This document shows positions 1,916 through 34,026 of a stretch of 64,000 bases of DNA, piece after piece. Under the pieces are notes generated by a model. That model saw only the letters and a program-made list of their open reading frames with translations. It was not told where the DNA came from and did not search any database. Location: assembly GCA_041690135.1 (NCBI GenBank), contig JAWLHY010000001.1, positions 576,001-640,000 of the forward strand, read 5' to 3'. The translations under genes were made by a program, and so were the position numbers. How positions within the stretch are numbered: the stretch's first letter is position 1; every line of letters starts with the position of its first letter. Source of the stretch: Armatimonadota bacterium (GTDB taxonomy: Bacteria; Armatimonadota; SYMT01).

Positions 1916-1937
1916 GGGCGGTCGGTCGCGGGGAAGA

Positions 1938-4178: not shown

Positions 4179-4740
4179 TTATACACACCGTAGGGCAGTA
4201 CTTTGCTGCACCAGGTACCACTTGAGCTTCTTCGTCAACTCCTGGGGGTTGCGGCACTCCATGAAGTCCCAGCGCCCGAGATTGCCCCAGTTGTTCACCG
4301 CTGAACACCAGCGGCGGGCGGCCTGGTGCTTGGCGCTCTCTTCGTCGCCGTGCTGTCCTTTGATCTCTAAGAGGAGAAAGGTTCCGTCGTTCAGGCACAC
4401 GATGTAGTCAGGCTCGTAGGTGCGGGCCACGCCTTCGTACTCGTAGGGGATCAGCAGGAAGGGGCGGTCGTTGCGGACGTAGTGCTTCACGAAGTCCTTC
4501 TGCTGCTCCAGGAAGAAGGCCGCGCTCTGCTCCCAGGCTGAGTCGAGAACCACGGCATCGACGTGTGAGCGCACCGTGCTGTGGACGTGACGGGTGGTGG
4601 TGAAGTCCACATCCGCCGTCGTGCCGATGGGCTTGAAGCGGTTGAGCAGCGGCAGAAGCGGCGTCTCGCCCTGGGCGTCATCGGGTTCGATGGCGTCCAG
4701 GAGCTGGCCCTTGACCCAAATCACGTAGCGGTCCAGACCT
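4179..4740 (-). pseudogene. C-terminal remnant of type III restriction enzyme Res subunit
   Basis: DSAWEQSAAFFLE, YVRND, IPYEYEG...YEPDYIV...LLEIKG...AKHQAARRWCSAVNN match the Res nuclease tail; helicase region absent. Confidence 0.75.
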
Positions 4741-4812
4741 CTCGCGGGTCCGCGCCGTTCCAGTCCACCTTGGTGCCGACGTACTGTGAGGATAGTGGTC
4801 ATTGGCAGTGTC

Positions 4813-7179
4813 TTACAGCCCCGTAGGAGGTACCATGTTTGTTCCGACAGAGGCGGTCGGAGGTGGGAAGCGCGGCGGCACGCGAGGTGCATCCGCTGGG
4901 CTAGCTGGCGGCACGTTCAGCAACTCGGTCTCGCTCAGCATTGCCACCTCCATCTCGACTCCCTCCTGCTTGAGATCGGTCCGAAGCTGCTCCACCAGTT
5001 TCACCGCCTCATCGCCGAACTTGGCGGTGGTCGCGAAGTAGAACTTCACGATGCCCAACTCGGCAGCCAGCCGGGCGGTCACCATGTCCTTCTCCTCTAG
5101 GCCCGTGCCTGCTTTGCACTCCCCAGCGTAAAGCTGTTGCTCGAAGCAAAAGAGGAAGTCGAGTTCCTTCTCCTTCGCCTCCTTGGTGAGCGAGAGGCCC
5201 GTGGTAAGGCATGAACACTTCCGGCCCTTGGTCAGGTGGTGCAGCGCCAGCAGGTTGGGGAGCACGTCTTGGTCCATCGCCCGGTTTACCAGCGTGTTTA
5301 GCCGGTATTCCCACTGGATTTCTGACCCCTTGGGCTGCTCGACCGGAAGGGGGGACTCATGTCCGCAGCCTGTGCATTGCACGCGCTCCTTGACGGCTTC
5401 TAGGGGATGCCAGTCGGGAGCACCGCAGCGCGGACAGTGAAGATAGAAGCCACGGACAAGCACAGAGGCTCGGGTGAGTTCGTCCATCAAACCGAGGAGC
5501 TTGCCCTTGTAAGGCTGTAGCTCTTGACGCTGGCTCAGTTGCCGGTAGGTCTTGGTGACGCCCTTCAATTCTGAGATCACCTCGACATCTTCGAGCACCC
5601 GCTGGATGTCCGGCAATTGCTCTTGCTTCAGTCCGAATTGCTGAGCGACCCGCTGCGCGATCTTCTTAGTGCTGCGGAGCGCCAGCAGGTCAAGCAAGAG
5701 GTATGCCTCCTTCGAGGCCAGGAGGTCCACCCGTGGCATGCCGCCTAGCAGGGTCACTAGGGCGTCTGCATACTGTCCGTCCTTCGAGAGTTGGGTCTGA
5801 TAGCCTCGCGCCTGGAAGTACTGGCGCAGGCTCTCCCACTCGTCAAGCAGGCTGATGGCGAGATAGGTAGCAGTTTCCGGGACGTGCCGGATGTTGGTGA
5901 GACCGTACTTCGAGAATCGCGCCTGCTGGTCAATCGCATTACCAACCGCCTGCGCTTTCGGATACCGGCTCCAAACATCGCATTCGATGTCTACCCCTAC
6001 CCCCGCATAGCCGCGATTTCGGAAGCTCGGCGGCGGTTGGAGCAGGACCTCGTTGGTGCCCAGCGTTAGCTCCACTCGATGAGCTACCTGCGGCTCGATG
6101 CCCTCGTAGTACTCGTAGGGAAGCCGTGGGACACTGGGGGCATAGATGAGCTTGGAAACATCCAGGTCCACATTTTGGGGTGGCTTCGGACCGCTCCACG
6201 AGTGATCGGACGCCTTGGCACCCTTGGGATGGCGCTTGAAGAGACGGCACTTACCAAGGGCGGCGGCGAGTTGATCCTCCTTTTCATCCGACCAAGCGGT
6301 AGCGATGATGTGAACGTCAGCGTGCAGGTTAGGGTAGAGGATGTTCTGCTGGATAAACCGGCCCAATGACCTGATGCACGCTCGGTCGGCAAGAAGTTCC
6401 GCAGGCACCAGGAAGGTGCGTCGCCCCAGGTCCCTGTCGAACTGCGTGCTCTCGCGCAGTGAGCGGAGGTTCCAGTAGTAGCACAGGTCGAGGGGGGATT
6501 CCACCAACACGAGATTGAAGCTGTTGGTCCTCGTGCTCCCCACGACCTTGTGTGGGCGCATCCCGTAGGCGGTAAGATTCAGCACCGACCCGAACGGATC
6601 ATCGACGTACTGCGACTCCCAAAAGGCCGAACTGGTAACCGCAACCTCCCGGTCGGCAATCGTCAGGTTCTCGTCGTATGCCTCTTCCTGTCCAGGATAG
6701 ATGCTGCCGAAGAGCGCGAGTCCGAGCCACGGTTTGCCAAAGTCGTTATCAAGGGTGTATCGGCCCAAGCTCTTCGACTGCCGGTCCTCGTCGGTAAGGA
6801 CGTGAATCGGGTGCGGTGCAGGGTCAAACTCCCGAAACCAGCGCATCTGCTGGAGGTGTAGTGTCCTCCCTGGGAAGAGAGCCTGTAGGCTCGCGAGTGT
6901 GCCCTGATGAATGCCTGGAGGATTCCGGTTCCAGCCATTGAAGTCTCCGACGAAGCCATCGGGATCGGCAAGACGTAGCAGGTGCGCGAAGAACGAGTGG
7001 ATGCTGCCATCCCGCTGGACCGGAACGAGGATGGTCCTGAGGCCGCCCCACTGCGTGCAAACGAACCGCAGAATCTGCGTGAGCGCGTCCGCATCTTCCT
7101 CATGGAAGAAGTACGCGAACTTCGCAGGCCGTAGGTTGACCTTCAGCTTGTAGGCATCATCTAGTGCGGTCGGAACCAT
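4813..7179 (-). CDS. Large hypothetical protein with C-terminal Zn ribbon and PD-(D/E)XK-like nuclease
   Basis: Long ORF; CPRC...CTGC followed by ELDFLF...AGECKAG; ATG 7179 with AGAGGAG upstream. Confidence 0.6.
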   Translation of the reverse strand: MVPTALDDAYKLKVNLRPAKFAYFFHEEDADALTQILRFVCTQWGGLRTILVPVQRDGSIHSFFAHLLRLADPDGFVGDFNGWNRNPPGIHQGTLASLQALFPGRTLHLQQMRWFREFDPAPHPIHVLTDEDRQSKSLGRYTLDNDFGKPWLGLALFGSIYPGQEEAYDENLTIADREVAVTSSAFWESQYVDDPFGSVLNLTAYGMRPHKVVGSTRTNSFNLVLVESPLDLCYYWNLRSLRESTQFDRDLGRRTFLVPAELLADRACIRSLGRFIQQNILYPNLHADVHIIATAWSDEKEDQLAAALGKCRLFKRHPKGAKASDHSWSGPKPPQNVDLDVSKLIYAPSVPRLPYEYYEGIEPQVAHRVELTLGTNEVLLQPPPSFRNRGYAGVGVDIECDVWSRYPKAQAVGNAIDQQARFSKYGLTNIRHVPETATYLAISLLDEWESLRQYFQARGYQTQLSKDGQYADALVTLLGGMPRVDLLASKEAYLLLDLLALRSTKKIAQRVAQQFGLKQEQLPDIQRVLEDVEVISELKGVTKTYRQLSQRQELQPYKGKLLGLMDELTRASVLVRGFYLHCPRCGAPDWHPLEAVKERVQCTGCGHESPLPVEQPKGSEIQWEYRLNTLVNRAMDQDVLPNLLALHHLTKGRKCSCLTTGLSLTKEAKEKELDFLFCFEQQLYAGECKAGTGLEEKDMVTARLAAELGIVKFYFATTAKFGDEAVKLVEQLRTDLKQEGVEMEVAMLSETELLNVPPASPADAPRVPPRFPPPTASVGTNMVPPTGL

Positions 7180-7404
7180 GTGCTCCTCTAACAAGCAGGC
7201 ATAATGAATCGCTGCTTGCGAACCCGGCCTTCACCCGCGCCTCCAACTCCAACTCCCGCGCCACCTTGCTCTCTTCGCTCCGCACCCGTTCACGGACGAG
7301 CAACTCCAGCACGCCCGCCTGGCTGATGCCGAGGTGCCGGGAGAGCCACGCCAGGTGGTCGAGAGCCTCCGCGCTCAGGCGGAAGTTGGTTGCTTCCTCC
7401 CCAT
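7157..7404 (-). pseudogene. Ribbon-helix-helix (CopG-like) regulator, frameshifted near start
   Basis: Manual translation TNFRLSAEALDHLAWLSRHLGISQAGVLELLVRE; ATG 7404 is one base out of frame and no in-frame start precedes the domain. Confidence 0.6.
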
Positions 7405-7420
7405 CCGTCCCCCTGCCTGA

Positions 7421-7439
7421 TGTAGCGCGTTTGTAGCGT
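7421..7439 (-). promoter_or_regulatory. Tandem CGCTACA repeat upstream of RHH gene (putative operator)
   Basis: Minus strand acgctacaaacgcgctaca; the 12-mer AAACGCGCTACA recurs at 19402-19413. Confidence 0.4.
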
Positions 7440-7582
7440 CGTGCCTCTTACCTGTCATTCGTAGACTGGCCGGTTTCCTCTGCAATCAACCGCGTGCCAA
7501 GCCTGGGCCAATCTCACGCACAAGAACTCCAGGGAGTCCCTGCCGATCTGACGTGGCCGACGGGGGGGCGTGTTGGCTTGGC

Positions 7583-7640
7583 TCCCCTGAGGAAACCCCT
7601 CCACCTAGATGGAACGATGGCATCCGGGATGGGACCCGCT
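7583..7640 (+). repeat. Dispersed island motif copy A (GAGGAAACCCC..TGGAACGAT..GATGGGACCC)
   Basis: Aligns by eye with 25132-25191; core GATGGGACCC at 7628-7637. Confidence 0.7.
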
Positions 7641-7649
7641 GTGAGCGGG

Positions 7650-8174
7650 CTAAAAGGACAGCCCGTTCTCGACAAACGACGAGATACGGTAGTACACGTC
7701 CTGGTCCCTTGGTATCATCCCGTCGAGGAAGAACATCACCAGGTCGTCTTCCTCGACATACCTGCTCAGGAGGTCCGAAACAGTCTCGTGGCGTCGGAAG
7801 CAGTACGTGTGAAGAGCACCTCGCACCAGGTCGGTGGCTTCGTCGCTCTCTTCCGACAGCGGCTCTGATCCACTCGGGAGTAGTTTTGCGGAGCGGAGGT
7901 GTGCGACCAGACCCTCCCAGGATTGTCCCGTCTCAGACCACCAGTCCAGGAACAGCGGGTCGTATTCGTAATCCCAGTAGCGGGATTCATAGACCGAGTG
8001 GATGTTCCGAAGCGTGACGAGCCAGAGGGCTACTTCTACGGGCGGCGTATCGGGCTGGATCACGGAACCAAGCTTCGGATCGTGCAGCGCGGCCCATGCC
8101 GTATCCCACCATGCGGTATTTCCTGGGTCGTCCACATTGCTGAACAGCTTGGTCCGCACCTGATCCCAATCCAT
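7650..8174 (-). CDS. Hypothetical protein (174 aa, acidic, Trp-rich)
   Basis: ORF with natural composition, 24 bp downstream of the large ATPase on the same strand. Confidence 0.6.
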   Translation of the reverse strand: MDWDQVRTKLFSNVDDPGNTAWWDTAWAALHDPKLGSVIQPDTPPVEVALWLVTLRNIHSVYESRYWDYEYDPLFLDWWSETGQSWEGLVAHLRSAKLLPSGSEPLSEESDEATDLVRGALHTYCFRRHETVSDLLSRYVEEDDLVMFFLDGMIPRDQDVYYRISSFVENGLSF

Positions 8175-8197
8175 CGTTTCCTCGCATTCTTGAACGG

Positions 8198-11100
8198 CTA
8201 TTCTGCGATCCCCTCGGCAGTTGTGGAGAGGTAGGGATACATCTCCACCTCGGCGCAGGTTGCCATCTGGGGCGTCTGAATGAGCGCGTGGCCTACGTCC
8301 AGTCCTTCGAGCTTGGACACAGTATCCGGGATGAAGTGCGGAGCCTTGAGGTATCCCGAGACCCGCTTGGAGAGCGGGTAGTTGGTTCGGAAGATCACCT
8401 TAGTGCCTGCGTTATCCAGCACCTCGGGACGAAAGTCTTGCATGTTTTGGCTGGCGACCACGACGGCTATCCCGAACTTCCGTCCTTCCTTCATCAGCTT
8501 GGGGAGCGTTGTATCTTTCGCCAGACGGTGAGCCTCATCGAGAACGATCAATAGCCTCAGCCGATCTGTCTCACCCCAAAGGAACATGTCCTTGTAGAGC
8601 TTGCGAAGGACGAACGCCCCCGCCGCCATCTGCATCGTCTCGATCCCCACGCGGTGCAGATCGATGACAGTGGTTTGAAGTCGTGAGGGATGGAACGCCA
8701 GGGTCTCTGCTGCATCCTCGCGGAACATGTCGAACTCGAAGAGCATGCGGCAGCGGGCGACGGTATTCTTGATCCCACGACGCTCGTTCTCTAACTCCTT
8801 GAGCCGGGTGAAGACTTCCGCCATCGTTGGTGGCGTCAGGTCTGAGTCTCGATCCCCATCGCTCTCATAGCCCGCTCGCTGGTAGCAGTCACGGATCGCT
8901 TCATACACGAGGTCTCGCTGCATATCGCCGAGACCAAACACGTATTCGATGATCTCGCCGACCTGGAAAGCATTGGTCCGCCACTGGTTCGTGCCTCCGC
9001 CTTGCCCGGCACTCGCCTCGAACGGTGAGAAGGGCAGACCCTGTGATACATCCAAGACCAGGGGCTTTGCTGCCTTCGCAAAGGGGGTGTCTCCCTGACC
9101 GAACTGCCCGTGAAAGTCGAAGATCAGCGCGGGAATACCCCGTCGGGTGACTTCGGACAGCAAGCGCAGGACGGCCCAACTCTTCCCCTGTCCAGGAATG
9201 CCCAGCACAAAGAGGTGGGAACTCCCAGAGACGGAGCCGGTCCAGGAGACTTCGGCATCTGAATGGACGCTCCTTCCCAACGGAATGACCAGTTTGGAGG
9301 GGCCGTCGGTTCTCCGCTCATCCGGCTCGCGGGAGGGTTCCGCTGACTCGACCTCTACTGCCTCCTCAACCTCGGGAGCATCTTCAGCAGGTTGCGGCAT
9401 GGTCGGGGTGTCCAGTACAGCGGTGGAGACTCGCGCCTCAGTGGCAGCCCGCCCTTCACCACGCTGGTCCGCGCTGGCTTCTGCCGTTATAGGCGGCTCC
9501 TGGCTCCCTGAACCGCTCTGGCTTGGTCTGACACTGGGGCGAAAGCTGGTGTCCCGCTCCACCTCGATCCCCGTCAGCACCGTGATCATATTGTCTCGAT
9601 GCGTGAACGGTCGGCGGCTCTGTCCATCCAGATTGACTACATAGCCGAAGAAGCGAGACGCCAGGCGAGCAAAGCCCATCTCCACGCGCCTGATGTTGCT
9701 CAGCATCTCTGCGTAGTGGCTATCATTGGTGATCCGTCCATGCCGGTAGGCACGTTCCGCGTAGAATCGCAAGATAGCCGCCAACTGGCACCTGAGGATC
9801 GGCGCATCGAAACGGGCCGGGTCGGCAAAGTAGAGACTGCGGAAGGTCTGATCCGTTCGCGCCGTCTGATCGGCGATTTGGTCCAGGAGGGGCGTGGGCA
9901 CGGGGTTGTTCCCGATCCGGTACTTGACCTCCAGATAATCGATTAACAACCGCTGGCGGGTTGGACGCACCAGGAGAAGGTCGCAACGACTCCCCGACTC
10001 GGTCACCTGGGCTTGCTTGGCATCCAGGAAAAGCCGCTTGTGCGCATCCAGGGGCACCACAATGGCGTCCTGTAGCTCGCCTTTCTGCTGGAGGTAGTTC
10101 GCGACGACCGCCAGGCTGACCGTTTCCTTGGCGAACGAGTCCTGGCCGAGATCGCTCCCGACTTCATTTCCGATGAGACGCAGCGCCAGCCGCCCCGAGA
10201 TCATCTTCAAAGTTGCCAGAAGCTCCGCGCAGCTTCTCTCGTCTCGTGCGAGGCCCAGTTCGTGCATCGCACGGGCGATCACGTCTGCAACTTCCTCCTT
10301 CCACTGCGTTGTGACCACGAGACGATGCCCCAGACCATCCAGAAACTCGGGCGTGTAGTCCAGGAGATACTGCCGGGCCTGCGAGGCGAGGTGAGTGTCA
10401 GTCGGCGTGTCGTAATACTCCACCCCGAAATGCCGGTCCACCGTGAGCACCCAGTCCGACTGCTGATGCAGAGTACTCACGATCCGCCGCTCCTCAGGAC
10501 CCACCTCCAGCCGCAGCGCGGGGACCTGGTTCGTCTGCGCCTGCCCGTCTACCAGCCTCGCCGACAAGCGCAGAAACGCTTCTTGCCCCTCCACCAGCAG
10601 GTCTGAGTAGGCTCGATTCACAGGATGCCGCTCGGCGACCTGCTCACCCTCGAACACCACCTTGCGCTCCCAGATCGCCCGGCCTTCCTCACTGAAGAAC
10701 TGCGTCTGGAAGTGTGTCAGCAGCCCGAAGATCGCTGCGCTCGTGCCGGTTGCGTAGTGGGAGCCACTCGACCCCTGCGCCTCTCCGCCGTCTCGGGCCT
10801 GGCTAACCGCGATATGTGGTTTGTAGTGGTCCAGGCACAGGGTCAGATGCACGTCTCCGCCAGGAAGGCTGTCCAGGTTCGCATCGGTCAACGTGCGGCG
10901 TGAAACCTGAACGCCAGGTCGCAGGTGCGTGCCTCTTGCCCGTAGCCCGCGACGATACCATTCTTCGGTGATCGCCTCCAGACCGGGCGCGGGGGTCTGA
11001 ACGTCGCTCTCTGTGTGGGTGATGAGATCGAGGTGGAGGGAGCTTCGTCCGTCCGTCCCAAGCGTCTCGTCGTCCGCAGTGGCTTCTGCGAGGGCGTCAT

Positions 11101-13408
11101 CCAGGGCTAGTCGCAAGAACTCCCCTGATCCAGGGTTGATGGCGTTGACACGGAGCGTCTTCAGATAGGTGTGGAGGTCGAGGTAGCTCTTGATCTCGGA
11201 GCCGATATCCTTCGGCTGAAGGTCAGTGAGTGAAGGCTCGATGAGACCGAAGCCGGTCACCCGCGCTACTTCGGACAGCAGCGTGCCCGGATCGTCGGTA
11301 TTAAGCGGTACGCAGATGGCATGGAAGAAGCCGAGGTTGTCGGCGAAGATTTCTGATCGTTCCCCTGCTTCCCCCCTCACGAGAAACGCGGGCAGGTTGA
11401 GGGGCGCGAGATGTGCCAGTGCCGTCTCATTCAAACGGGCTGCTCGCGTGCGCTGCGGCAGTCCCACCAACTCGCCAGTGATCTTACTGATCCACTCCGC
11501 GTAGGCCACGTACCACAGCAGGCGCAGTGGATGGGTGGGCAGCACCACCGTGGCGTGAGGCCGACCGGGCAAGTAAGGTATCTCTAACTGGAGAGTGTCG
11601 AGGGCGAGTAGAGCCGCCGCATCCTCCCGCGAGCCACCGTTGGTGTCGGAGCGGCGAGCGCTGGTGGCTGCATCAAGCAGGTCACAGTATGCCTTGGCGT
11701 AGGCGCGGACATGGCGGCAGACGCTGGCGCTGAGATCAGCCGTTTCGATGAGGCCGCGCCCCTTCTGATCCCGTATGGCATCAAACGCTTGCTTCCGTTC
11801 CCTGGTGAACTTGCTCCAGGCGTCCGACAAACCCGCGCTGACGACCACAGGCTGTGCTTCCACACGGTCGCGGTCCAGGGTGTCTACGCCCGTCACAGTC
11901 GCTGTATAGCGCCCCCCTAGCAGCGGGTTAGCGAGAGCATCTGTCTCCAACTCCCGCAGGAAGGGGGTCGTCGCCACACGGACTACCGAGCGCTCGTTCA
12001 CCATGAACGGGTAGTACGCCAGGTCCTTCTCTTCCACGGGAAGCGGGGAGAGGTGGTACTGCGCCTCCTTACCCCGCATCGCAAGGGAAAGCACGGCGTC
12101 AGGCAAGCATCGGAACGTCGGAAGCCGACGCAGCTTGGCCTGGTCTCCATCTGTGCCTGCCGCCTCCAGGTAGAAGCTCTGGCTGATGCCTTCGATGGCT
12201 TCGCTCGTCTCGGGGTCGAGAATCTCGGTGCCATTAGTGTCTAACCCCACCACGCGAGCCTGAACCTCTCGCACGTCCAGAGTGGCGGGGTCCAGGTCAA
12301 GCGAGACCTTGGCGGACCGGGCGCTCCCGCGCACCGTCGCCTGGGGAAGGTCCACGCCTGCGGCGTCACCAGCATCGTATTTGTCGCGGTCGGGGATCAA
12401 TTCGACTCGCCACTGCGCGACATCCGTGGGTTTGCTGGGCTGTGGCTCCCAGCGCACCGTGACCTTCTGCTTAGGTCCACACTCCGCGTAAGGAACCGTC
12501 CCAGGTGCCGCCTGCTTCAGTCCGCAACTGGCTCTGACGACGCCGTTCTCATAAAACGGCACCACGTCGATCCTTTCCAGATCGGACGGCTCGACCTTCG
12601 GGAACTGCCACTGGTCAAAGGTCAGGCGGCCCTGCCAGTCCGGCTCCGTCAGGATGCGGAGCCATTCGCGATCTGACTGGAGCCGCTTCCCGATCAGGTA
12701 CTGGCTCAACTCCGTCTGGATGGTATTCGGGGCGAGCTTGAGGGATGCGACTCGCTCGGCTACGCTGGAGTGCGGGCGGGCAGGTCGTGCCAGGCGATCC
12801 ACCGATTGCCGGTTCAGGTCCAAGCGCCTGGCATAGTCGTCGTGCTCGGAGTAATCCGGGATCAGACCTACCCGCCACAACTCGGCTCCCGCCGTCTCCA
12901 GCGTCGGGTTGTCCAGGATGGCGGAGAGATAGTCGATCTCGTCCTCCACGGGCACTCGCGCCGTGCCACGCAACTGTCGGAAGACGGCGTTCACGTAGGG
13001 CTTCACGTCTCTGGGGATGTCGTTCTGAAGCTCATCCACAAGCCTACGGAGGAACTCGGGGAGGTCGAAGGGAGCGAAGGAGTTGCCGAGCGAGCTAACC
13101 GCCACATCCTGAAGATCGGCAGGCACGAACAGGCAGAGGCCGGACCGCTTGCGGTTGCGAAGCTCGATAGCCCGGTCGGAGGGGATTTGCAGGTCGTCCT
13201 GTTGATCGTGTGACAAAACATACGTCTCAGCGTTCGCACTCATCACAGACCGCAGACCCATACCCGCGCTGCGGGCTTCCTCCGCGCTCAGATGGTCCAC
13301 GCGCACGCAGTGCCCTGGGAGCTTGCCGTCGAACTCGCTCGCCAGCCGTTCGATCAATCGCTGCATCTTCCGCGAGAGTGGTGGTGCCGATCCCACGGGG
13401 CCATTCAT
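8198..13408 (-). CDS. MAD8/DndH(DptH)-like protein with C-terminal HerA/FtsK ATPase
   Basis: 1736 aa; AIELRN near N-terminus, LPTHPLRLLW, DWVLTVDRHFGVEYYD, nuclease-like RCDLLLV...LEVKYR, Walker A GIPGQGKS, Walker B IVLDEAH, KEGRKFG. Confidence 0.8.
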   Translation of the reverse strand: MNGPVGSAPPLSRKMQRLIERLASEFDGKLPGHCVRVDHLSAEEARSAGMGLRSVMSANAETYVLSHDQQDDLQIPSDRAIELRNRKRSGLCLFVPADLQDVAVSSLGNSFAPFDLPEFLRRLVDELQNDIPRDVKPYVNAVFRQLRGTARVPVEDEIDYLSAILDNPTLETAGAELWRVGLIPDYSEHDDYARRLDLNRQSVDRLARPARPHSSVAERVASLKLAPNTIQTELSQYLIGKRLQSDREWLRILTEPDWQGRLTFDQWQFPKVEPSDLERIDVVPFYENGVVRASCGLKQAAPGTVPYAECGPKQKVTVRWEPQPSKPTDVAQWRVELIPDRDKYDAGDAAGVDLPQATVRGSARSAKVSLDLDPATLDVREVQARVVGLDTNGTEILDPETSEAIEGISQSFYLEAAGTDGDQAKLRRLPTFRCLPDAVLSLAMRGKEAQYHLSPLPVEEKDLAYYPFMVNERSVVRVATTPFLRELETDALANPLLGGRYTATVTGVDTLDRDRVEAQPVVVSAGLSDAWSKFTRERKQAFDAIRDQKGRGLIETADLSASVCRHVRAYAKAYCDLLDAATSARRSDTNGGSREDAAALLALDTLQLEIPYLPGRPHATVVLPTHPLRLLWYVAYAEWISKITGELVGLPQRTRAARLNETALAHLAPLNLPAFLVRGEAGERSEIFADNLGFFHAICVPLNTDDPGTLLSEVARVTGFGLIEPSLTDLQPKDIGSEIKSYLDLHTYLKTLRVNAINPGSGEFLRLALDDALAEATADDETLGTDGRSSLHLDLITHTESDVQTPAPGLEAITEEWYRRGLRARGTHLRPGVQVSRRTLTDANLDSLPGGDVHLTLCLDHYKPHIAVSQARDGGEAQGSSGSHYATGTSAAIFGLLTHFQTQFFSEEGRAIWERKVVFEGEQVAERHPVNRAYSDLLVEGQEAFLRLSARLVDGQAQTNQVPALRLEVGPEERRIVSTLHQQSDWVLTVDRHFGVEYYDTPTDTHLASQARQYLLDYTPEFLDGLGHRLVVTTQWKEEVADVIARAMHELGLARDERSCAELLATLKMISGRLALRLIGNEVGSDLGQDSFAKETVSLAVVANYLQQKGELQDAIVVPLDAHKRLFLDAKQAQVTESGSRCDLLLVRPTRQRLLIDYLEVKYRIGNNPVPTPLLDQIADQTARTDQTFRSLYFADPARFDAPILRCQLAAILRFYAERAYRHGRITNDSHYAEMLSNIRRVEMGFARLASRFFGYVVNLDGQSRRPFTHRDNMITVLTGIEVERDTSFRPSVRPSQSGSGSQEPPITAEASADQRGEGRAATEARVSTAVLDTPTMPQPAEDAPEVEEAVEVESAEPSREPDERRTDGPSKLVIPLGRSVHSDAEVSWTGSVSGSSHLFVLGIPGQGKSWAVLRLLSEVTRRGIPALIFDFHGQFGQGDTPFAKAAKPLVLDVSQGLPFSPFEASAGQGGGTNQWRTNAFQVGEIIEYVFGLGDMQRDLVYEAIRDCYQRAGYESDGDRDSDLTPPTMAEVFTRLKELENERRGIKNTVARCRMLFEFDMFREDAAETLAFHPSRLQTTVIDLHRVGIETMQMAAGAFVLRKLYKDMFLWGETDRLRLLIVLDEAHRLAKDTTLPKLMKEGRKFGIAVVVASQNMQDFRPEVLDNAGTKVIFRTNYPLSKRVSGYLKAPHFIPDTVSKLEGLDVGHALIQTPQMATCAEVEMYPYLSTTAEGIAE

Positions 13409-13420
13409 TGTCGCATGATC

Positions 13421-15154
13421 CTATGAGTGCTGGAGGGTTGTCGATTCAGTTGCAGTGGGTCTCGCGTCCTCGGGTAGGTCGCTGTGGAAGCGCGGGAAGA
13501 TGCGCTGAGCGTTGAAGTCGTCGGACAGGTCCAGGAAGAGGCCCATCTGGCGGAGGCGCTGCTTGAGCGCGGTGAAGTTGTCCTTGGCGGCGGCGGTGGC
13601 TTCGACGCTATGATCGAAGGATGGCGGAGTGTCGATCAGGATGCCGAACCGCTCCTGGAGGAAGGTCAAGAACGCCGCCAACGTAATGCTTCGAGGTTCA
13701 GGAGCGGGTCTAGGGTCTCCGCTCTGCCGTTGCGCCTCGGGTGAGAGGACCGCTAGCTGGACGAGCGTCTCTAGCAACAGATCGCTCAGCACGTAGCGCC
13801 ACACCCGCCGCCCGCGCTCATTCCCACGCAGTATCCCGTCCGAACGGCGCAGCCCCCCCACGTCGCCGTACCACTTCAGGATGTTGCGGAGACCACTCTT
13901 ACGCTGAAGCAGGACCAGTAGCTCGCTGACTCGGGAGAGCACGTCCAGATCAGGGTGCTCCAGGATCGCCTGAACATCCAGGGGTAGGCTCGTGTCGTCG
14001 TCGCCCTCGCCACGGAAGAGCTTCTCGATCTCTCGCTCATCACTTCGGGCGTCCGCCCTGATATCTGGGTGTTCTCGCAGTCCCCAGAGCGTCGTGAGGT
14101 ATTCCCCACCCACCTTCGGGCCAATCTCGCGCTTCAGGTCCCGATTACCTTCCACGTAGCGGTTGAGCGTGCGAAGCTTGAGCACGGAGTGGAAGAAGTT
14201 CTCCATCTCCTCCAGATGCCGGTTCACGCATTCGTTCGCCAACGTGTCGCTGCGGCTACCTCGGATCTGGGTGAGATCAACGTATAGCTCCAGTGGCGTC
14301 AGTTCCTGGCTTCGGGGGTCAAACTCGGGAGGCACCTCGCCTTGGACGACCAGAGTGTTCGTCGCCTTCATCAGCCTGAGGGTGTAGATCAGGAGTTCAA
14401 AGTTCAGCAGGCAGATCAAGTAGCGGGCCAGTATCTGCGGCGGAACGCGACCTGAGTAGACAGTCAGAAATCCCGCGATATCCCAGGCAAGGCTCTGTGC
14501 CGCGAAGGCGCAGGCGGGAGGTGCAGGGGGGCGAGCCGACCGATTGCTCTCTCGTGGGGCGTCGAAGCCGTCCAGATAGTACAGTTGCAGCAGCACCTCT
14601 AGGTCGAGCGGAGTGTGCCCATCGTACCGCCCGTCTTTGCTCGCTCCCTGGCCTAGCTCTACGCCACGTGCGAACGTTCGGGTGATGAGAGCGTCGAATA
14701 TTCCCTGGACGACACCTCGATCCCGTGGGTCTCGGGTCAATAGCGTGGTGAGCAATCCGTACAGGAAGTGGTGAACCTGCCGCATCCGGCTCGTCTGCGC
14801 GGGAAAGGACGGCTTGTAGGACAGGAAGGAAAGCGGACGAATGTAGGCGATCTGCTCCGCCTTGTGAGCACGGCCCACGGTGCTCGTCTCAATAATGCTG
14901 GTCCGTACCCATTTATCCAGAAGCCGGATACCACTCTCGTCCAGGAAGCCTTTCAGCTTGGGATGACCCGCTAGCGCGGTGGTCCGACCGATGATGTCTT
15001 TCGTATCGGTGCGGGTTGCCCGATCCCTTCCGCCAGACCGGACGAGCCAGAAGAGAGCAGGCAGGAGCATCTCCACGTCAAAATCATTCATCTCGACAAC
15101 AAACAACTCGTCGAGCTTCGTCCCTGCGAGGTCACGGGGGAGCTTTACGCGCAT
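13421..15154 (-). CDS. MAD7/DndG(DptG)-like protein
   Basis: 577 aa between kinase and ATPase; C-terminal FLQERFGILID...LKQRLRQMGLFLDLSDD as in DptG-like proteins. Confidence 0.7.
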   Translation of the reverse strand: MRVKLPRDLAGTKLDELFVVEMNDFDVEMLLPALFWLVRSGGRDRATRTDTKDIIGRTTALAGHPKLKGFLDESGIRLLDKWVRTSIIETSTVGRAHKAEQIAYIRPLSFLSYKPSFPAQTSRMRQVHHFLYGLLTTLLTRDPRDRGVVQGIFDALITRTFARGVELGQGASKDGRYDGHTPLDLEVLLQLYYLDGFDAPRESNRSARPPAPPACAFAAQSLAWDIAGFLTVYSGRVPPQILARYLICLLNFELLIYTLRLMKATNTLVVQGEVPPEFDPRSQELTPLELYVDLTQIRGSRSDTLANECVNRHLEEMENFFHSVLKLRTLNRYVEGNRDLKREIGPKVGGEYLTTLWGLREHPDIRADARSDEREIEKLFRGEGDDDTSLPLDVQAILEHPDLDVLSRVSELLVLLQRKSGLRNILKWYGDVGGLRRSDGILRGNERGRRVWRYVLSDLLLETLVQLAVLSPEAQRQSGDPRPAPEPRSITLAAFLTFLQERFGILIDTPPSFDHSVEATAAAKDNFTALKQRLRQMGLFLDLSDDFNAQRIFPRFHSDLPEDARPTATESTTLQHS

Positions 15155-15163
15155 CTCCGCCTC

Positions 15164-18100
15164 CTAGCCCTGCTCGACCGGCAGAAGCTCGATAAAACCG
15201 CCTACTTGCCTGACGCGGTGCAACTGACGCCCGCTCTCCATGAGGAGAAGCTCCTCGGCAGCCTGGTTCAGCAGCCGGTTCTGAAACTGCGCGAGATCGA
15301 TGACGAACGGCTGCTGTTCCTCCGCTCCAGCCTGGTAACCCTCACTGAACCGCATGAGAATCTCGTATAAGTCCAGGGAGATCAGGATGGAGGCATCGCT
15401 CTTCAGATGCAGAAGCTCTAGCGCGTTCGGCAGCACCTCGATGCTGGTCTCTCGCGGCAAGAGCACACGGCACTCGAACTCCGAGTGAGGGAACCTCTTA
15501 AAGACGGTAAGACCGACCTCCTCGTTGTGGCTCGTCCGCACGCAGAGGAACTGGCGATACATGCGGGGGTCCACAATTCCGTCTGCCCGCGAGATGGCTT
15601 CGCAGAGCGTGTCCCTTACTGCCTCCAGCGGCGTTCTGCCGCTGACTGCATCAAGAAACGCGCTGAAGTGACGATAGGGCAGCAGGTCCGGCCACTCTGG
15701 GAGGTGCTGCTCGTGGTTTAAGAGCGCGTTACCGTCTCCCTCGAAGAAGAGACGCCGTTTGTATGCGCCATACCAATCGCGGCCAAGAGCCGTGATGTTG
15801 AGCCCATTTAACGGATCGAGCGCCCGGTTGGTCAGCGGCAGCATGATCCCGTCGATCTCATGCTGGGTGTCGGCATGGCGGCGGAAGTGCAGGAAGCGAT
15901 CCAGCCTGGGAGAGGAGACTTCGGCTGGGTCACAGGCTGCGAAGTCCTTCAAGTTGTCTTCTCCCTCGTCTTCCGGGTTGAAGGCAGCCATGAAGTAGAG
16001 CCGATTGTACCAGTGGGGAGGTCGTTCGTTCTGATCGAGTTCGCGGTGGATGTCCCCGCACGTGGTGGCACCCGTCAGGAGATAGGCCAGCGCCGAACGC
16101 AAGTCGCGCATGGTGACGTGCCGCTCCCTCCGCAGGTGGATGATCTGGAGCAGCGCCCGTATCCGCCTGCGTACTTCCGCACCATGCTGGGGATCGGCTA
16201 GGGTGTCCCGATTGAACTTCATCGGACAGGTCGTCCGTGCTCGACAGGCATCACAGGCCCGCCACTCGTCGCTGAAGATGAGCTTCCCCAGCACTTGGTC
16301 GAACAGGTCGCCCGCCGCCCCCTCCGCGAGTTCGCCCCCGACCACTGCTCTCTGCTTCAAGTCAACGAGCGCTACTCGCTCGTCCACGTGCCAGTCCGGT
16401 CTTTCAAGCAGACGGTAGACTTGCTTGCCAAGCCATTTGTAGTTGGGGTTGGACAGGAGAAACTCGCGCAGCTTCCCATCGTTGATGGCAAGCAGTGCGG
16501 TGTAGGCAGGGTCGCGAGGAGCGGAGTCGCCACGGAAAGGGCGCAGGATTTCGTCCAGCAATTCATTCGCTCGCTTCCCTCGGCTCGACTCGGATGCATC
16601 GTAGTTTGCCGCGAATTCCCGCTCTTCCAGGCGGTAGCGCCAACCGTTCTGACTGTCGCAAGGAATGGCCTCCGCGCCAGCCTCCGCAAGCGCCTCACCG
16701 AGTTGCTCCAGGAACGCCGTCTTACCGTCACCTGGGTTACCACTCAGCAGCACGACCCAGTAGCGGCCCTCCAGCACCCGTGGAATGAGTTCCCGGTCTA
16801 GCTTCGTGGGCACGTAAGTGTCACAAGCGAAGTCGGTGTCCAGCCCCCGATTGTCGGCGTTACCCACGCGGCTGTTCCGGTAGAGACCCTGGATGTCCGT
16901 GACCCAAGTGTTGATGACGCGCTCTCCAGTGGCGGTCACGAACCCCTGGGCGGCTGCCGCCGTGCGCAGAGCGTCAGCGAACTCCTTGGCGGTCGTGAAG
17001 CGTGAGGACTGATCGGCGGAGATCGCTCGACGGATGACGCCCAAAACCTCACCACGAACAAGGTCGTCAGCGGGAGCCAGACTGATGATCTGGCTCTTGT
17101 CAAACCGGCCCTGGAGATCGTGGCAGAATGGTGACTTGCCTGTAAGCATCCTGAACAGCAGTACTCCCAGGGCGTAGGTGTCACAGGTGGAGTTCCACGG
17201 GTCACCCCGATCAAGCTCGGGGGCACGGTAGGCGACCGTCCCGACGGCGGTCCTCCCGACCTCCGCAATGGGCGCAGCGAAGCCGAAGTCAATCAGTTTT
17301 GGACCCGAGTCAGTGATGATGATATTCCGTGCGGAAAGATCGCGATGAGCAAAGGCGTGCGCCTCCAGCGTGTCTAGGGCCTCCAGCACGTCATGGGCGA
17401 AGCTGAGCACGCGGTCGAGAGGCCAGGGAAACTCGCTGCTGAGATCATCGACCGAGGAGCCGTGGACGTACTCCAGCTTGAGATGGAACGGATCCTCAGG
17501 CCTTCGGACATCGAAGACGCGCATGATGCAGCGATGGGACGGCAATCGCTGGAGCGCGTTGAACTCGTTGCCTGCGAGGCGGTGTGCCTGGAGGGGATCA
17601 CGAATCTGTTTCAAGACGAAGGTGCCGCCATACAGGTAGTCACGCACCAGATAGGTATTTGCGGTCCCGCCCGTGCCCAGGACCCGCTCGACCTCATACT
17701 GTTCGGCGATACGATCACCCCGCTGATACAATCCCCCGAAGGGTCTTTGGCCTGGGGTGCCTTCCACGACCGGCTGCCTGACCTCGCTGGATGCCTCGCT
17801 CGCAGCAGCATCGGCGCGGGCGAGCCGGGCGGCGAATAGCTCCCGCAGAAACTTCCTGGCTTCCTCGGCGCTTTGCCATCGGTTACGGTCATCGGCGACA
17901 ACCATCGACCTGAGCACATCCCGCAGGTTGTCGATCTCGTCGGGGAGCAGCCCCGAGTCGTCCAGGCGGAGGGCCGGAATGTTGATGTTGCCGTCGGTAT
18001 CTCGCATCTCCTGGGCGCTCATACCTGTGAATAGCTCAGCCAGGATCAGACCTGCCGCAAAGATGTCCGAGGCGGCGGACGCGAAGGACATGCTGACTGC

Positions 18101-19228
18101 AAGCTCGGGAGCGCGATAAGGCGAGTCTAGGGCGAGGGCATCCGCAGTCGAGGCGATAGACTGGCTATTTGCCAACCGAGCGAACTCAAAGTCGGCAAAG
18201 ACCACTCGGGGAGGGGTCCGTGATTGATCGAGAAACACGTTGTCGGGCGTGAGGTTCCGATGGACGACTCCCTGCTCGTGGAGCAGAGCGAGACCCGTGA
18301 GAAGCGCTTCTCCCAGTTCCAATGCATCCCCTAAAGTTAGCTCCCCGCTGGTGAGGCTCACTGAATAGGCCCGCAGCGAGGGCAGGGCTACCAGGTGCTG
18401 CGGCACCACGATGTAGCGGTCATCCCCCCACTTGAATGGCAGGTCTACCCCAGGGGCCATGCCAGCATTCACCAGCTTGCTCAATGCATGAAAGTCCCGG
18501 TAGATCAACTCTTCCTGGCGGCTCCGCTCGTCATTGTTCAGACCACTGAGTTCATAGAGCTTGAGCCGTCGTTTCCCATCAGTTGTCGCCGCTTCGTGCT
18601 GGGCCAAGAAGGCGCGGTAGTGGGGACCGCCTGTGAGCGCTTCCAGAATGCGATAAGCATTGATGGCACGAGGGAGTGTGGGGCGTGGCGGGAGTAGGCG
18701 CAGCTTCTCCATGATCTGCGGTTGAAAGCGTGCGAGATCATGATCACGGTTACGGCGATCTAGGGTTCGCAACGCTTGGTCCGCGTCAGCCAGCTTGACG
18801 ATCTGGTCTCGGCGCTGCTCTTGCACCAACAAGGTCGCCTCTGGGTCCGACAGGATTACCAACGGCAGGACGAAGGGAACTCCCCCGAACTCAGTGGTGA
18901 CTCCCGGCACCTGATCGCGGACGTAACCGGCTAATCGCCTCGCAACGTACTCCATCTTGTTGAGCGGGCTTTCGAGACTTTCGCGGGAATCCAGCACCCA
19001 GTAGCTCTCGGTTCCGTGGATACGGCCCCGAAGCCCTTTCTCATCCGCAACGAAGATAGTGTGATCGGCGACGATGATGAAGTCTACCTCGCGAGTGGAC
19101 CCATTCGGCATCGTGAATATCTTGTTCGAGACGACCTTCCACTCACGCGGCAGCTTGTCGCGGAAGTATTCCGCCGCTGTCTGCTCACCTTTAGTGATGA
19201 AGTCGCCGAATTGCACAAGTTCTGCCAC
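15164..19228 (-). CDS. MAD6-like NERD + two Ser/Thr kinase domains + DndF-like P-loop domain
   Basis: NERD REVDFIIV...DEKG; kinase 1 HRNLTPDN/DFE; kinase 2 GTGGTA, HRDLSARN, DFG, YRAPE; P-loop GNPGDGKT; CDAC..CP; TMRDLRSALAY. Likely GTG start 19228 after GAGAGGGG. Confidence 0.8.
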   Translation of the reverse strand: MAELVQFGDFITKGEQTAAEYFRDKLPREWKVVSNKIFTMPNGSTREVDFIIVADHTIFVADEKGLRGRIHGTESYWVLDSRESLESPLNKMEYVARRLAGYVRDQVPGVTTEFGGVPFVLPLVILSDPEATLLVQEQRRDQIVKLADADQALRTLDRRNRDHDLARFQPQIMEKLRLLPPRPTLPRAINAYRILEALTGGPHYRAFLAQHEAATTDGKRRLKLYELSGLNNDERSRQEELIYRDFHALSKLVNAGMAPGVDLPFKWGDDRYIVVPQHLVALPSLRAYSVSLTSGELTLGDALELGEALLTGLALLHEQGVVHRNLTPDNVFLDQSRTPPRVVFADFEFARLANSQSIASTADALALDSPYRAPELAVSMSFASAASDIFAAGLILAELFTGMSAQEMRDTDGNINIPALRLDDSGLLPDEIDNLRDVLRSMVVADDRNRWQSAEEARKFLRELFAARLARADAAASEASSEVRQPVVEGTPGQRPFGGLYQRGDRIAEQYEVERVLGTGGTANTYLVRDYLYGGTFVLKQIRDPLQAHRLAGNEFNALQRLPSHRCIMRVFDVRRPEDPFHLKLEYVHGSSVDDLSSEFPWPLDRVLSFAHDVLEALDTLEAHAFAHRDLSARNIIITDSGPKLIDFGFAAPIAEVGRTAVGTVAYRAPELDRGDPWNSTCDTYALGVLLFRMLTGKSPFCHDLQGRFDKSQIISLAPADDLVRGEVLGVIRRAISADQSSRFTTAKEFADALRTAAAAQGFVTATGERVINTWVTDIQGLYRNSRVGNADNRGLDTDFACDTYVPTKLDRELIPRVLEGRYWVVLLSGNPGDGKTAFLEQLGEALAEAGAEAIPCDSQNGWRYRLEEREFAANYDASESSRGKRANELLDEILRPFRGDSAPRDPAYTALLAINDGKLREFLLSNPNYKWLGKQVYRLLERPDWHVDERVALVDLKQRAVVGGELAEGAAGDLFDQVLGKLIFSDEWRACDACRARTTCPMKFNRDTLADPQHGAEVRRRIRALLQIIHLRRERHVTMRDLRSALAYLLTGATTCGDIHRELDQNERPPHWYNRLYFMAAFNPEDEGEDNLKDFAACDPAEVSSPRLDRFLHFRRHADTQHEIDGIMLPLTNRALDPLNGLNITALGRDWYGAYKRRLFFEGDGNALLNHEQHLPEWPDLLPYRHFSAFLDAVSGRTPLEAVRDTLCEAISRADGIVDPRMYRQFLCVRTSHNEEVGLTVFKRFPHSEFECRVLLPRETSIEVLPNALELLHLKSDASILISLDLYEILMRFSEGYQAGAEEQQPFVIDLAQFQNRLLNQAAEELLLMESGRQLHRVRQVGGFIELLPVEQG

Positions 19229-19358
19229 GGGTCCACCCCTCTCGATGGCCGACTGCCGCATCTGGGGCAGCGTTGGGTAGCGCGTCTGTAGCGTACCGCC
19301 TTTAAGCCAATCAGCCAAGCTGCCCGGCTTTCCCTCCTTCAATTCTCTCGAACTGCGG

Positions 19359-19413
19359 ATTTTTCCTCAATTTGCTGCCGCCATGCGCTATGGGTAGTGG
19401 AAAACGCGCTACA
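19359..19413 (+). promoter_or_regulatory. Divergent control region with TTTTCCTCAATT and AAACGCGCTACA motifs
   Basis: Both motifs recur elsewhere in the island (29925, 30093; 7421). Confidence 0.5.
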
Positions 19414-19426
19414 CAAAGGAGGCAAG

Positions 19427-19873
19427 ATGCAGACGTTGACGAGAGACGGGGTTGGGTATCGCACCCGCGTGATGACGGAACAGAATGCTCAATCGTTTGC
19501 CGCCTGCCTGCGGGCCAACGGCCAGTTCACCAACGTGGAAGTTCACGAGGAGCCACGAGCCAAGGGGGAGCGCCGCTATTACGTCGCCTACCAGCCGTCA
19601 GACCCACAGCAGCAGCAGGTGCTTCTCCAGGGCCACGAGGAGCAGCGCCGCGCCAGAGCCGAGAGTGAGGGCGAGCAATACCTCTTCGTCGAGAATTCGG
19701 ACACTGGCCGCTTCTTCTGGTGCCAGTCGGTCAGCGGCGAAGTGTACGAGGTGACACTCCACAACTGCACCTGCCCGGATGCCGAGTTCCGCTGCCGGAC
19801 GAACGGAATCCGCTGCAAGCACTCCCTGGCGCTGGAGAAGGCCCAAGAACGCGGTGCCGTCCTCACCTTCTGA
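19427..19873 (+). CDS. SWIM zinc-finger protein (mobile element type)
   Basis: YEVTLHNCTCPD...CKH SWIM motif; AAGGAGG RBS before ATG 19427. Confidence 0.85.
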   Translation: MQTLTRDGVGYRTRVMTEQNAQSFAACLRANGQFTNVEVHEEPRAKGERRYYVAYQPSDPQQQQVLLQGHEEQRRARAESEGEQYLFVENSDTGRFFWCQSVSGEVYEVTLHNCTCPDAEFRCRTNGIRCKHSLALEKAQERGAVLTF

Positions 19874-19907: not shown

Positions 19908-20112
19908 AAGCACGCCGAGGAACGCCGATGAAGGACGACGAACTACTCTCGCAGACCACCCGACATCCCACCGACTTCACCCACCGTGTTGACGCGCAAA
20001 TCCAGCGGCTCGACGACCTCTAACAAAGCGTGCAGGTTCACTACAAGTACTTCCCAGCGGGTGTCGTCAATAGCTTCGGGTGGTAGACGGCCATTACAGA
20101 CGGGTACCAACA

Positions 20113-21042: not shown

Positions 21043-21156
21043 TCGCTCCGTAGCATCTCTGCCGCTGTGTCCGTACCACATTCACCGCGCTGGAGTCTCA
21101 GCGCTCAAGGCCGTGAGGGAGGTGGGGCGGCGGTCCCGCTGAAGACATTCTCAACG

Positions 21157-21202
21157 CAAGCCCCTTTCCTCTCGGTGGATCATCGCAGCGATGGGACCCG
21201 CG
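21157..21202 (+). repeat. Dispersed island motif copy B
   Basis: CAGCGATGGGACCCGC, core 21190-21199, between convergent Shedu and HNH-TPR-PIN genes. Confidence 0.55.
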
Positions 21203-21236
21203 CTAGGGGTGTGAGAGCATAATCATCCCCGCTCTG

Positions 21237-33938: not shown

Positions 33939-34026
33939 CGGAGAGGGCGGGGTGAACCCGCCAAACGAGTGAAAAATGACGGTCTGTTTTCGAGACAGGC
34001 TCCTTCAACCACTCGGACACCTCTCC
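33939..34026 (-). tRNA. tRNA-Ser(CGA) with canonical 5' half and atypical 3' half
   Basis: GGAGAGGTGTCCGAGTGGTTGAAGGAGCCTGTCTCGAAAACAG; acceptor GGAGAGG/CCTCTCC+G; T loop only TTCAC and no paired variable arm. Confidence 0.8.

Follow-up and report, generated by a model that had tools for sequence, protein, structure and literature searches.

Can the restriction half of a DndFGH-type system stand on its own, with no modification genes beside it? This question is raised by a gene cluster in an Armatimonadota bacterium (GTDB lineage Bacteria; Armatimonadota; SYMT01), found on a stretch of 64,000 nucleotides that we analysed as a whole and call the window (GenBank assembly GCA_041690135.1, contig JAWLHY010000001.1, positions 576,001 to 640,000 of the forward strand; the contig is called C1 below, and positions without a prefix are those of the window). 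Three genes, here A, B and C, are homologues of mad6, mad7 and mad8 and of the genes for DndF, DndG and DndH, and they are followed by gene D, which encodes a small acidic protein. A preliminary description, made from the sequence of the window alone, had named the cluster a mad6-mad7-mad8 (DndFGH-like) effector module and had offered three ways in which it might work without modification genes: through a different trigger, with a methylase borrowed from elsewhere, or held off by the acidic protein. The reading that we favour, with a probability of about 0.6, is that the locus is a self-contained three-subunit DndFGH/SspFGH/MAD6-8 restriction module that shares a 49.4-kb tRNA-Ser island with other defence genes.

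Domain architecture of the trio

The four genes are minus-strand open reading frames (ORFs) that lie head to tail in the ORF calls of the window, with intergenic gaps of 9 nt (A-B), 12 nt (B-C) and 23 nt (C-D) and a gap of 455 nt between gene D and the next gene. All four have the codon pattern of their neighbours, with GC high at the third and low at the second codon position, and the tightly spaced operon seen at the outset is made of real reading frames. The trio is present in a single copy and is the only DndFGH-type module of the genome. The start of gene A is ambiguous between a TTG at 19342, an ATG at 19261 and a GTG at 19228; the GTG, which is also the start used in the preliminary description, is favoured because the MAD6 model and the homologue alignments both begin at about residue 33-39.

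Gene A passes the NCBIfam model of MAD6 (NF047741; 492.7 bits, cut-off 460), and PADLOC matches it to mad6 (5.7e-66) and to PglW. Pfam finds a NERD domain, two stretches that match a protein kinase (1.2e-52) and, at aa 850-946, a P-loop match that is weak. The first kinase-like domain has HRN instead of HRD and DFE instead of DFG, HRD is absent at this place from all 13 aligned gene A homologues, and the domain is predicted to be inactive. The second kinase domain has its VLK lysine, HRD and DFG all intact, the HRD being retained in 11 of the 13 homologues and the DFG in all 9 that belong to the unlinked clade described below. Further downstream lies the DndF/SspF core, with a canonical Walker A motif and an asparagine in the Walker B-like strand (GN[PA]GDGKT and AIN[DE]G in 13/13 homologues). 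When residues 801-1392 are taken alone, PADLOC matches them to SspF (PDLC02796, 5.2e-24) over positions 32-524 of 525 and to DndF at 5.6e-7; a PDB sequence search with the core gave nothing meaningful. One member of the clade has a 699-aa gene A without the NERD and kinase part (L017:7897-9996), so this N-terminal arm is dispensable within the clade.

Gene B scores 399.5 bits against the NCBIfam MAD7 model (NF047733), which is below the cut-off of 410, in an alignment that is full-length (aa 5-556 to model positions 1-529). PADLOC assigns it to mad7 (7e-16) and weakly to SspG (5.4e-4). Our local copy of Pfam, which does not contain PF26611, has no match for gene B, and a PDB profile search returned nothing; the precomputed Pfam annotation places PF26611 on all 36 MAD7 proteins, that is, gene B and the 35 other homologues found in an index of 5.8 billion proteins, the best of which is 84% identical and the named ones mostly from Armatimonadota. 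A tblastn search of plasmids with gene B gave one weak match with 13% coverage and recovered no canonical MADS.

Gene C is recognised by PADLOC as DndH (1.3e-32) over aa 1154-1661 and as mad8 (6e-18) on its HerA part, with no PADLOC match to aa 1-1036, and the NCBIfam model of the MAD8 N-terminus (NF047742) gives 88.3 bits, below its cut-off of 175. In a PDB sequence search the matches were HerA (4d2i, 3.6e-9) and DptH (7es4, 1.5e-7). The Walker A, DEAH and ASQ sensor motifs of the HerA part are kept in 14 of 14 gene C homologues, and in the nuclease motif the D is present in 12 and the ExK in 10 of these 14. Gene C thus has the catalytic residues of a restriction endonuclease (REase) followed by a HerA/FtsK ATPase with a glutamine sensor, as does DndH. 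An AlphaFold (AF2) model of residues 540-1290, built on a 14-sequence alignment (predicted local distance difference test, pLDDT, 80.1; predicted template modelling score, pTM, 0.85), shows a class I S-adenosylmethionine (SAM) methyltransferase fold at model residues 161-496, a span of 336 residues. The best match in a wide VIA-align search was 1jqd_A (Z 12.8, root-mean-square deviation 2.9, 167 aligned residues), and nearly all of the top 50 structural matches are methyltransferases or have that fold; Foldseek gave weak matches to methyltransferases, the best at 5.7e-4. BpuSI, the comparator named in the available text of PMC10853773, was not among the listed matches of either program. The [SDN]PP[FYW] methyltransferase motif is found in 0/14 homologues, and a conserved NPGxG remnant stands at the expected position of motif I. 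By this fold and the missing motif, gene C has the inactive DAM-like methyltransferase domain described for DndH.

Comparison with known systems

By these motifs and matches the trio belongs to the kinase-fused branch of the DndFGH/SspFGH superfamily, and the MAD6-8 (DndFGH-like) identity first given to it holds. The closest published counterpart is the stand-alone DndFGH of Rakesh, Aravind and Krishnan (NAR 2024, PMC10853773), which the available text argues to be a counter-invader system. That text counts Dnd genes in 5228 taxa, with modification genes in 4287 of them, DndFGH in 1798 and the full set of eight in just 316; by simple arithmetic on these published figures, 941 taxa have DndFGH but not any modification module. 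It lists DndF variants in which NERD, an inactive and an active serine/threonine/tyrosine kinase are fused to a P-loop core with an asparagine Walker B, and it describes DndH as iSF2-HTH, two beta-sandwiches, a target-recognition domain (TRD), an inactive DAM with a nested TRD, REase and HerA/FtsK; DndG is, in this scheme, a DNA-binding protein with three winged helices. All the features of that account that we could test match our locus, among them the three-gene F-G-H operon, the NERD-pseudokinase-kinase-P-loop DndF and the DndH of about 1700 aa. There is a difference in that the core of gene A is nearer to SspF than to DndF. The parallel between PglW and DndF and the architecture are repeated, as far as the available text goes, in a 2026 BREX paper of the same group (PMC12839542). 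The novelty implied by the preliminary description was therefore overstated, as a DndFGH that stands alone and a DndF of this build can both be found in the available parts of these two papers. The main text of PMC10853773 contains no mention of MADS, Armatimonadota or Chloroflexota.

MADS itself, mad1-mad8 of Pseudomonas aeruginosa SMC4386, is methylation-based according to the available text of its preprint (Maestri et al., bioRxiv 10.1101/2023.03.30.534895), in which MAD6-8 are the sole mandatory components of the detection model and the operons vary in completeness. The locus in the window is like it in having MAD6 above the cut-off, MAD7 at full length and just under it, a MAD8 N-terminal match that stays below its own cut-off and the order 6-7-8. 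It is unlike it in that mad1-5 are missing from beside the trio, no recognisable full-length MAD2 or MAD5 is present anywhere in the genome, and the MAD7 belongs to a clade separate from the methylase-linked forms of the same phylum.

Two further systems share parts of gene A. With PglW of type 2 BREX the likeness is confined to the N-terminal NERD-pseudokinase-kinase region, which aligns to positions 17-772 of 1403 (PADLOC, 6e-64); the C-terminal half is a DndF/SspF core, the NCBIfam PglW model, for which the cut-off is 990 bits, gives 225, and no PglZ was found in the genome. SspFGH is said, in work attributed to Wang et al. in mBio in 2021, to be part of the SspABCD-SspFGH phosphorothioate system. 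The likeness here is that the best PADLOC match of the gene A core is SspF at full length and that gene B is weakly SspG; the differences are the NERD and double-kinase extension of gene A and that SspB and SspD were not found in this genome.

Modification genes in the island and the genome

The preliminary description had noted that mad1-5 and dnd genes are missing from the window. This is borne out, and it extends to ssp genes and to the whole 49.4-kb island, where Pfam finds no DNA methyltransferase or specificity domain in any of 26 ORFs scanned. The whole assembly (9.10 Mb in 25 contigs, 97% complete) gave no match to the mad5 model (control positive in 8 of 14 genomes) and none to PglZ (control positive in 2 of 14). 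The mad2 hidden Markov model (HMM) is unspecific, being positive in 14/14 control genomes, and was used just to check for full-length matches. It gave 78 partial, generic matches in the genome, none of them inside C1:576001-640000; at most about half of the model is covered by any one of these, so that a full-length mad2-type match was not found. The SspD model finds nothing in the genome except the DndC of contig C7, and SspB (DUF4007) had no match, which carries little weight as its control was positive nowhere.

The PAPS-reductase model has two matches in the genome, on contigs C18 and C7. The latter contig carries a complete dndB-C-D-E-A operon (C7:360001-380000, locus L012 3046-14162, minus strand; DndB 1.2e-143, DndC 4.2e-185, DndD 2e-170, DndE 2.9e-35, DndA 5.7e-167), which is accompanied by divergent genes for PbeA (6.9e-222, HKD/SF2-type) and PbeC (2.1e-170, DndD-like); the cluster also includes an unassigned 155-aa ORF. 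From its gene content this genome probably phosphorothioates its DNA. The search of the rest of the assembly that had been proposed thus had a divided outcome. Neither mad5 nor a full-length mad2 nor SspD or SspB turned up, and a full dnd set with pbeA and pbeC did; it lies on another contig, and cognate genes just outside the window, which would have spoken against a stand-alone trio, were not found.

This raises the question of whether the trio could supply the restriction that goes with the phosphorothioate (PT) mark of the C7 operon, acting in trans alongside PbeA and PbeC. In Salmonella, DndFGH reportedly restricts in partnership with the PT mark. In our genome the PT mark would be available in trans, and the trio is the sole candidate for a DndFGH-type partner; in the available text of PMC10853773, DndFGH is often found in the same genome as DndCDEA with a CxC/Pbe system and is frequently unlinked from DndABCDE. 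However, the two loci lie on different contigs, with the trio on a separately acquired island, and a sample of the phylum does not pair them. Among 400 other Armatimonadota genomes, MAD7 (E <= 1e-10) is present in 13 and DndC (E <= 1e-30) in 15 and the two together in none, so that just the window's genome has both. Nor was DndC found in the 5 other trio-bearing genomes tested, two of which overlap the phylum sample, when a weak partial match (2e-7) in a 228-aa frame is left uncounted. The gene A core also fits SspF far better than DndF, and the modification genes of Ssp were not found. Because MAD7 and DndC never occur together in the 400 other genomes, the link between the trio and the C7 operon looks coincidental, and we regard a partnership with the PT mark as quite unlikely.

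A clade of unlinked MAD6-8 loci

A scan with one genome per species gave 20 related loci from Armatimonadota, Chloroflexota (including six Thermogemmatispora), Acidobacteriota and one proteobacterial bin, with a clade-wide identity range of 33-62% over the four phyla. Its Armatimonas and Chthonomonadaceae records are, judged by coordinates, also among the 400 sampled genomes, which places that sample in Armatimonadota. By tblastn the order A-B-C, and with it the tripartite F-G-H arrangement, is kept in 20/20 of these loci wherever the contig allows. None of the 20 has a tblastn match to gene D or to the 793-aa, 237-aa and SWIM genes that adjoin the operon in the window, and the SWIM gene is a neighbour and not conserved with the trio. 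In the flanks of 10 loci, of which 67 ORFs were scanned with Pfam and 22 with PADLOC, there was no conserved neighbour and no match to a mad1-5 model. For Thermogemmatispora, L022 was fully and L021 partly scanned and the remaining loci share the ORF pattern; the trio at L022 is surrounded by housekeeping genes. Eight loci, L060 from the phylum search among them, have at least 2.5 kb of sequence upstream of gene A, and in none of these is gene A directly preceded by a pair of methylase and specificity genes.

Two other Armatimonadota genomes show what the canonical arrangement looks like. In G116 mad2-type (7.1e-67) and mad5-type (1.6e-25) matches overlap the start of mad6, and G174 is arranged in the same way (mad2 3.7e-49, mad5 1.5e-27), so the mad2 and mad5 models do detect these genes. 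The MAD7 proteins of this pair have the highest NCBIfam scores (500 and 431 bits, respectively), and their tblastn likeness to the MAD7 of the window is restricted to the last 70 residues. In a tree of 24 MAD7 proteins, made by a quick maximum-likelihood search with a midpoint root and with long branches, the window and 16 other unlinked rows form one clade (Shimodaira-Hasegawa-like approximate likelihood ratio test, SH-aLRT, 99), and the methylase-linked pair is on a separate long branch. A third group consists of G291, G258, G113 and two copies from G091; in the last genome two tandem MAD7-like genes lie between a MAD6-like and a MAD8-like gene (L053, contig C178, 1385-4989). Towards the count of orphan trios across genomes that had been suggested, there are now the 20 related loci and the 13 MAD7-positive genomes out of 400, and the trio without linked methylase and specificity genes turns out to belong to a conserved unlinked clade.

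Lack of linked genes may also be a sign of decay, in which case the trio would be an inactive remnant of a MADS that has lost its methylase and specificity genes. The presence of methylase-linked forms in the same phylum fits such a loss, as do relatives that are themselves decaying. In Thermogemmatispora tikiterensis (L021:11731-19694) an insertion with an IS605 OrfB/TnpB-type gene interrupts the DndH-like gene, and residues of the nuclease motif are lost in gene C of L018, L030, G258 and G113. The window's own copy has none of these defects: its ORFs are intact at 1392, 577 and 1736 aa, the catalytic motifs are kept, and the GC at the three codon positions is typical of coding sequence. Moreover, an unlinked arrangement that is common to a clade over four phyla, at such levels of identity, points to long-term retention. 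A dead remnant is for these reasons improbable.

The related loci bear as well on the idea, already in the preliminary description, that the trio borrows its mark from a DNA methyltransferase encoded at some other, unlinked place in the genome, as MADS relies on MAD2 and MAD5. The closest characterised system, MADS, is methylation-based in the available text of its preprint, and the 78 partial mad2 matches show that SAM-methyltransferase-like frames are many in this genome. Some methylase also lies within about 10 kb of the trio in three of the eight loci: at L026 a divergent DrmMI/type IIG-like gene abuts gene A, L060 has, on the same strand, MTase_II-like ORFs at a distance of 4.7 kb upstream, and at L016 a separate type III system is nearby. 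These three differ from one another in family and position, however, and the Thermogemmatispora trios (L022 having been scanned in full) sit among housekeeping genes. In the window's genome the mad5-type specificity gene was not found with a model whose control was positive in 8 of 14 genomes, and the generic mad2 matches stop at about half of the model. We therefore take a borrowed methylation mark to be unlikely.

The small acidic protein

Gene D was thought at the outset to be a candidate for a protein that holds the trio off. It starts 23 nt past gene C on the same strand with its own ribosome-binding site (GAGGA precedes the ATG), its GC at the three codon positions (0.617/0.406/0.726) is like that of its neighbours, and going by this arrangement it is probably co-transcribed with the trio. 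The protein is acidic (isoelectric point, pI, 4.37; 31 acidic and 13 basic residues) and rich in tryptophan. A single-sequence AF2 model is all helical with a pLDDT of 50.8, which is too poor for use, and the ESM Atlas gave no usable match. We had at one stage considered gene D to be an ORFan, when a word-indexed search found just the protein itself; this was dropped after an exhaustive HMMER scan of 1.84 billion cluster representatives found 6 others at 38-42% identity. Those 6 sit on contigs of 728-2382 bp, which are too short to give context. A metagenome scan added one homologue on a 4.1-kb contig (L061), where it follows a divergent SbcC-like ATPase gene and is itself followed by genes for a zinc-ribbon membrane protein and for a small pair like a toxin and antitoxin; a DndH-like gene is absent from these 4.1 kb.

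On this idea gene D would encode a dedicated inhibitor or antitoxin that silences the trio until infection. The position, the strand and the acidic character of gene D would suit this role, but its counterpart is missing from all 20 related trio loci, where C is mostly followed by an unrelated gene or by one on the opposite strand, its relatives are few, and the one with readable context stands apart from any DndH-like gene. We consider the inhibitor idea highly improbable. Because it is absent from the related loci and its homologue occurs in a context without a DndH-like gene, gene D is a rare small gene that hitch-hikes independently, and it is not a conserved subunit of the trio.

The island and the neighbouring genes

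The trio rides on a 49.4-kb island integrated at a tRNA-Ser gene, as can be seen from the integrase, the 43-bp repeats and a step in GC content. A tyrosine integrase (region L009:4592-5818) adjoins tRNA-Ser(cga) at C1:560592-560678, a perfect copy of the 5' half of this tRNA gene (C1:560636-560678) marks the right-hand border, and GC climbs there from about 0.60 to about 0.66. The other content of the island includes a PDC-M26 McrBC-like pair, Shedu, HNH-TPR, HNH_5 and Swt1-type HEPN proteins. Table 1 gives the positions of the features.

Table 1. Features of the trio, its flanking genes and the island border in the window
Feature	Position in window	Strand	Basis or remark
Gene A, MAD6 / kinase-fused DndF-SspF homologue	15164..19342	-	1392 aa from TTG 19342
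NERD nuclease-related domain of gene A, aa 51-164	18851..19192	-	Pfam PF08378, 4.4e-13
First kinase-like domain of gene A, about aa 253-510	17813..18586	-	PADLOC MkoA stretch, aa 253-510
Second protein-kinase domain of gene A, aa 549-785	16988..17698	-	Best stretch of Pfam Pkinase
DndF/SspF core of gene A, aa 844-1357: P-loop kinase-like domain and C-terminal region	15272..16813	-	Walker A GNPGDGKT, AINDG strand
Gene B, MAD7 / DndG-SspG-like	13421..15154	-	577 aa
Gene C, MAD8 / DndH-like	8198..13408	-	1736 aa
Methyltransferase-like fold of gene C	10304..11311	-	AF2 model and structure search
PD-(D/E)xK-type nuclease motif of gene C, D1143 ... E1160-V-K1162	9923..9982	-	Homologue alignment; window copy intact
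HerA/FtsK-type ATPase of gene C, aa 1396-1711	8276..9223	-	Pfam DUF87 8.1e-10, TrwB_AAD_bind 1.3e-10
Gene D, acidic protein	7650..8174	-	174 aa
Divergent SWIM zinc-finger gene	19397..19873	+	158 aa; PF04434, 24.4 bits, cut-off 19.6
Right-hand 43-bp direct repeat (att)	33984..34026		Perfect copy of C1:560636-560678, tRNA-Ser(cga) 5' half

Upstream of gene A the preliminary description had seen only the divergent SWIM gene. That gene is confirmed, and it is not the only one, as an HNH-Shedu SduA gene follows it at 20080-21042 (Pfam, PADLOC; 1.5e-101). The SWIM protein has a 40%-identical paralogue in the same genome (C2:885322-885735). The HNH-fused SduA faces a 1241-aa HNH and TPR protein with a PDC-M68A-like N-terminus (together 20080-24962), and the HNH domains of these two proteins are about 33% identical to each other.

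On the other side, the gap after gene D (7195-7649, minus strand) contains a frame that resembles a ribbon-helix-helix regulator (TNFRLSAEALDHLAWLSRHLGISQAGVLELLVRE), with no ATG, GTG or TTG upstream of its conserved-looking part. A scan for promoters and terminators gave sites no more numerous than in shuffled sequence. Beyond the gap, at 4179-7194, a 793-aa protein without a family match overlaps a 237-aa ORF; the latter matches the BPTD_3080 restriction endonuclease model (8.5e-47) over no more than the final 166 of its 970 residues and is possibly a fragment or part of a split gene. Further downstream on the same strand, at 2-4106 and on to C1:575270, is a candidate defence pair of PDC-M26A (AAA_5, McrB-like; 2.9e-157) and PDC-M26B (DUF2357-like; 1.3e-68).

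Discussion

The stand-alone reading is the best supported of those weighed here, and as a concept it is not new. In the mechanism that we propose, gene C would be the working enzyme, with DNA-recognition domains, a methyltransferase-like fold that is catalytically dead, a nuclease of PD-(D/E)xK type and a DNA-translocating HerA/FtsK ATPase, and gene B would be its DNA-binding partner. Gene A would bring in the nucleotide-binding P-loop core of DndF/SspF, and its NERD nuclease, pseudokinase and active Ser/Thr kinase would probably serve as a signalling or back-up effector arm. The three proteins would form a complex that detects invading DNA with recognition domains of its own and with cues that depend on infection, and not through a dedicated linked mark, since this lineage lacks the pair of methylase and specificity genes that stands before mad6 in canonical MADS. 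The gene content, the domain folds and motifs, the conserved order of the genes, the absence of linked modification genes and the borders of the island are observed; complex formation, cleavage of DNA, the trigger and the sparing of self-DNA belong to the proposal.

Several points weigh against the stand-alone reading, and looking at them can help to see where it is most exposed. The doubt that MAD6-8 alone suffices comes chiefly from P. aeruginosa, where, in the available text of the MADS preprint (bioRxiv 10.1101/2023.03.30.534895), deletion of mad2 abolishes defence and leaves the cells viable, which suggests that MAD6-8 of that system needs its methylase module to act. The PT mark that is probably present in this genome and the methylases near three of the eight related loci also count against the reading. 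The assignment to families has its own weak spots, as the MAD7 and MAD8 scores stay below the NCBIfam cut-offs and, in a difference from canonical DptFGH, no NCBIfam Dpt model matches gene A, its core, gene B or gene C at E <= 0.1. The comparison genomes are mostly metagenome bins, so that absences from them are not proof, and the MAD7 tree comes from a quick search and has a midpoint root and long branches. Finally, we found no paper in open-access PMC or on bioRxiv that reports an experimental test of an unlinked MAD6-8/DndFGH trio.

A wider claim can be made for the clade as a whole, and we make it tentatively, at somewhat less than even odds. It is that a monophyletic MAD6-8 lineage across phyla has dispensed with MAD2 and MAD5 and restricts without any epigenetic mark, with discrimination left to the target-recognition and dead-methyltransferase domains of its DndH-like protein and sensing to the P-loop/kinase subunit. 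If this is true, the lineage would be a mechanistically distinct, modification-independent relative of MADS.

The advance is a modest one and consists in the definition of an unlinked MAD6-8 clade over four phyla, set against methylase-linked MADS of the same phylum; the locus is otherwise a further example of an arrangement that comparative genomics has already catalogued. The genome is also one that holds both a stand-alone trio and a dnd and pbe cluster, so that cross-talk with the PT mark can be tested directly. The restriction mechanism of MADS and DndFGH is unsettled, and a 2026 review lists none for MADS in the available part of its table (PMC12904381). A MAD6-8 lineage without a linked methylase would be a convenient minimal system for finding out how the three large proteins act when alone, in what way self-DNA is spared and what is gained from the NERD and kinase arm.

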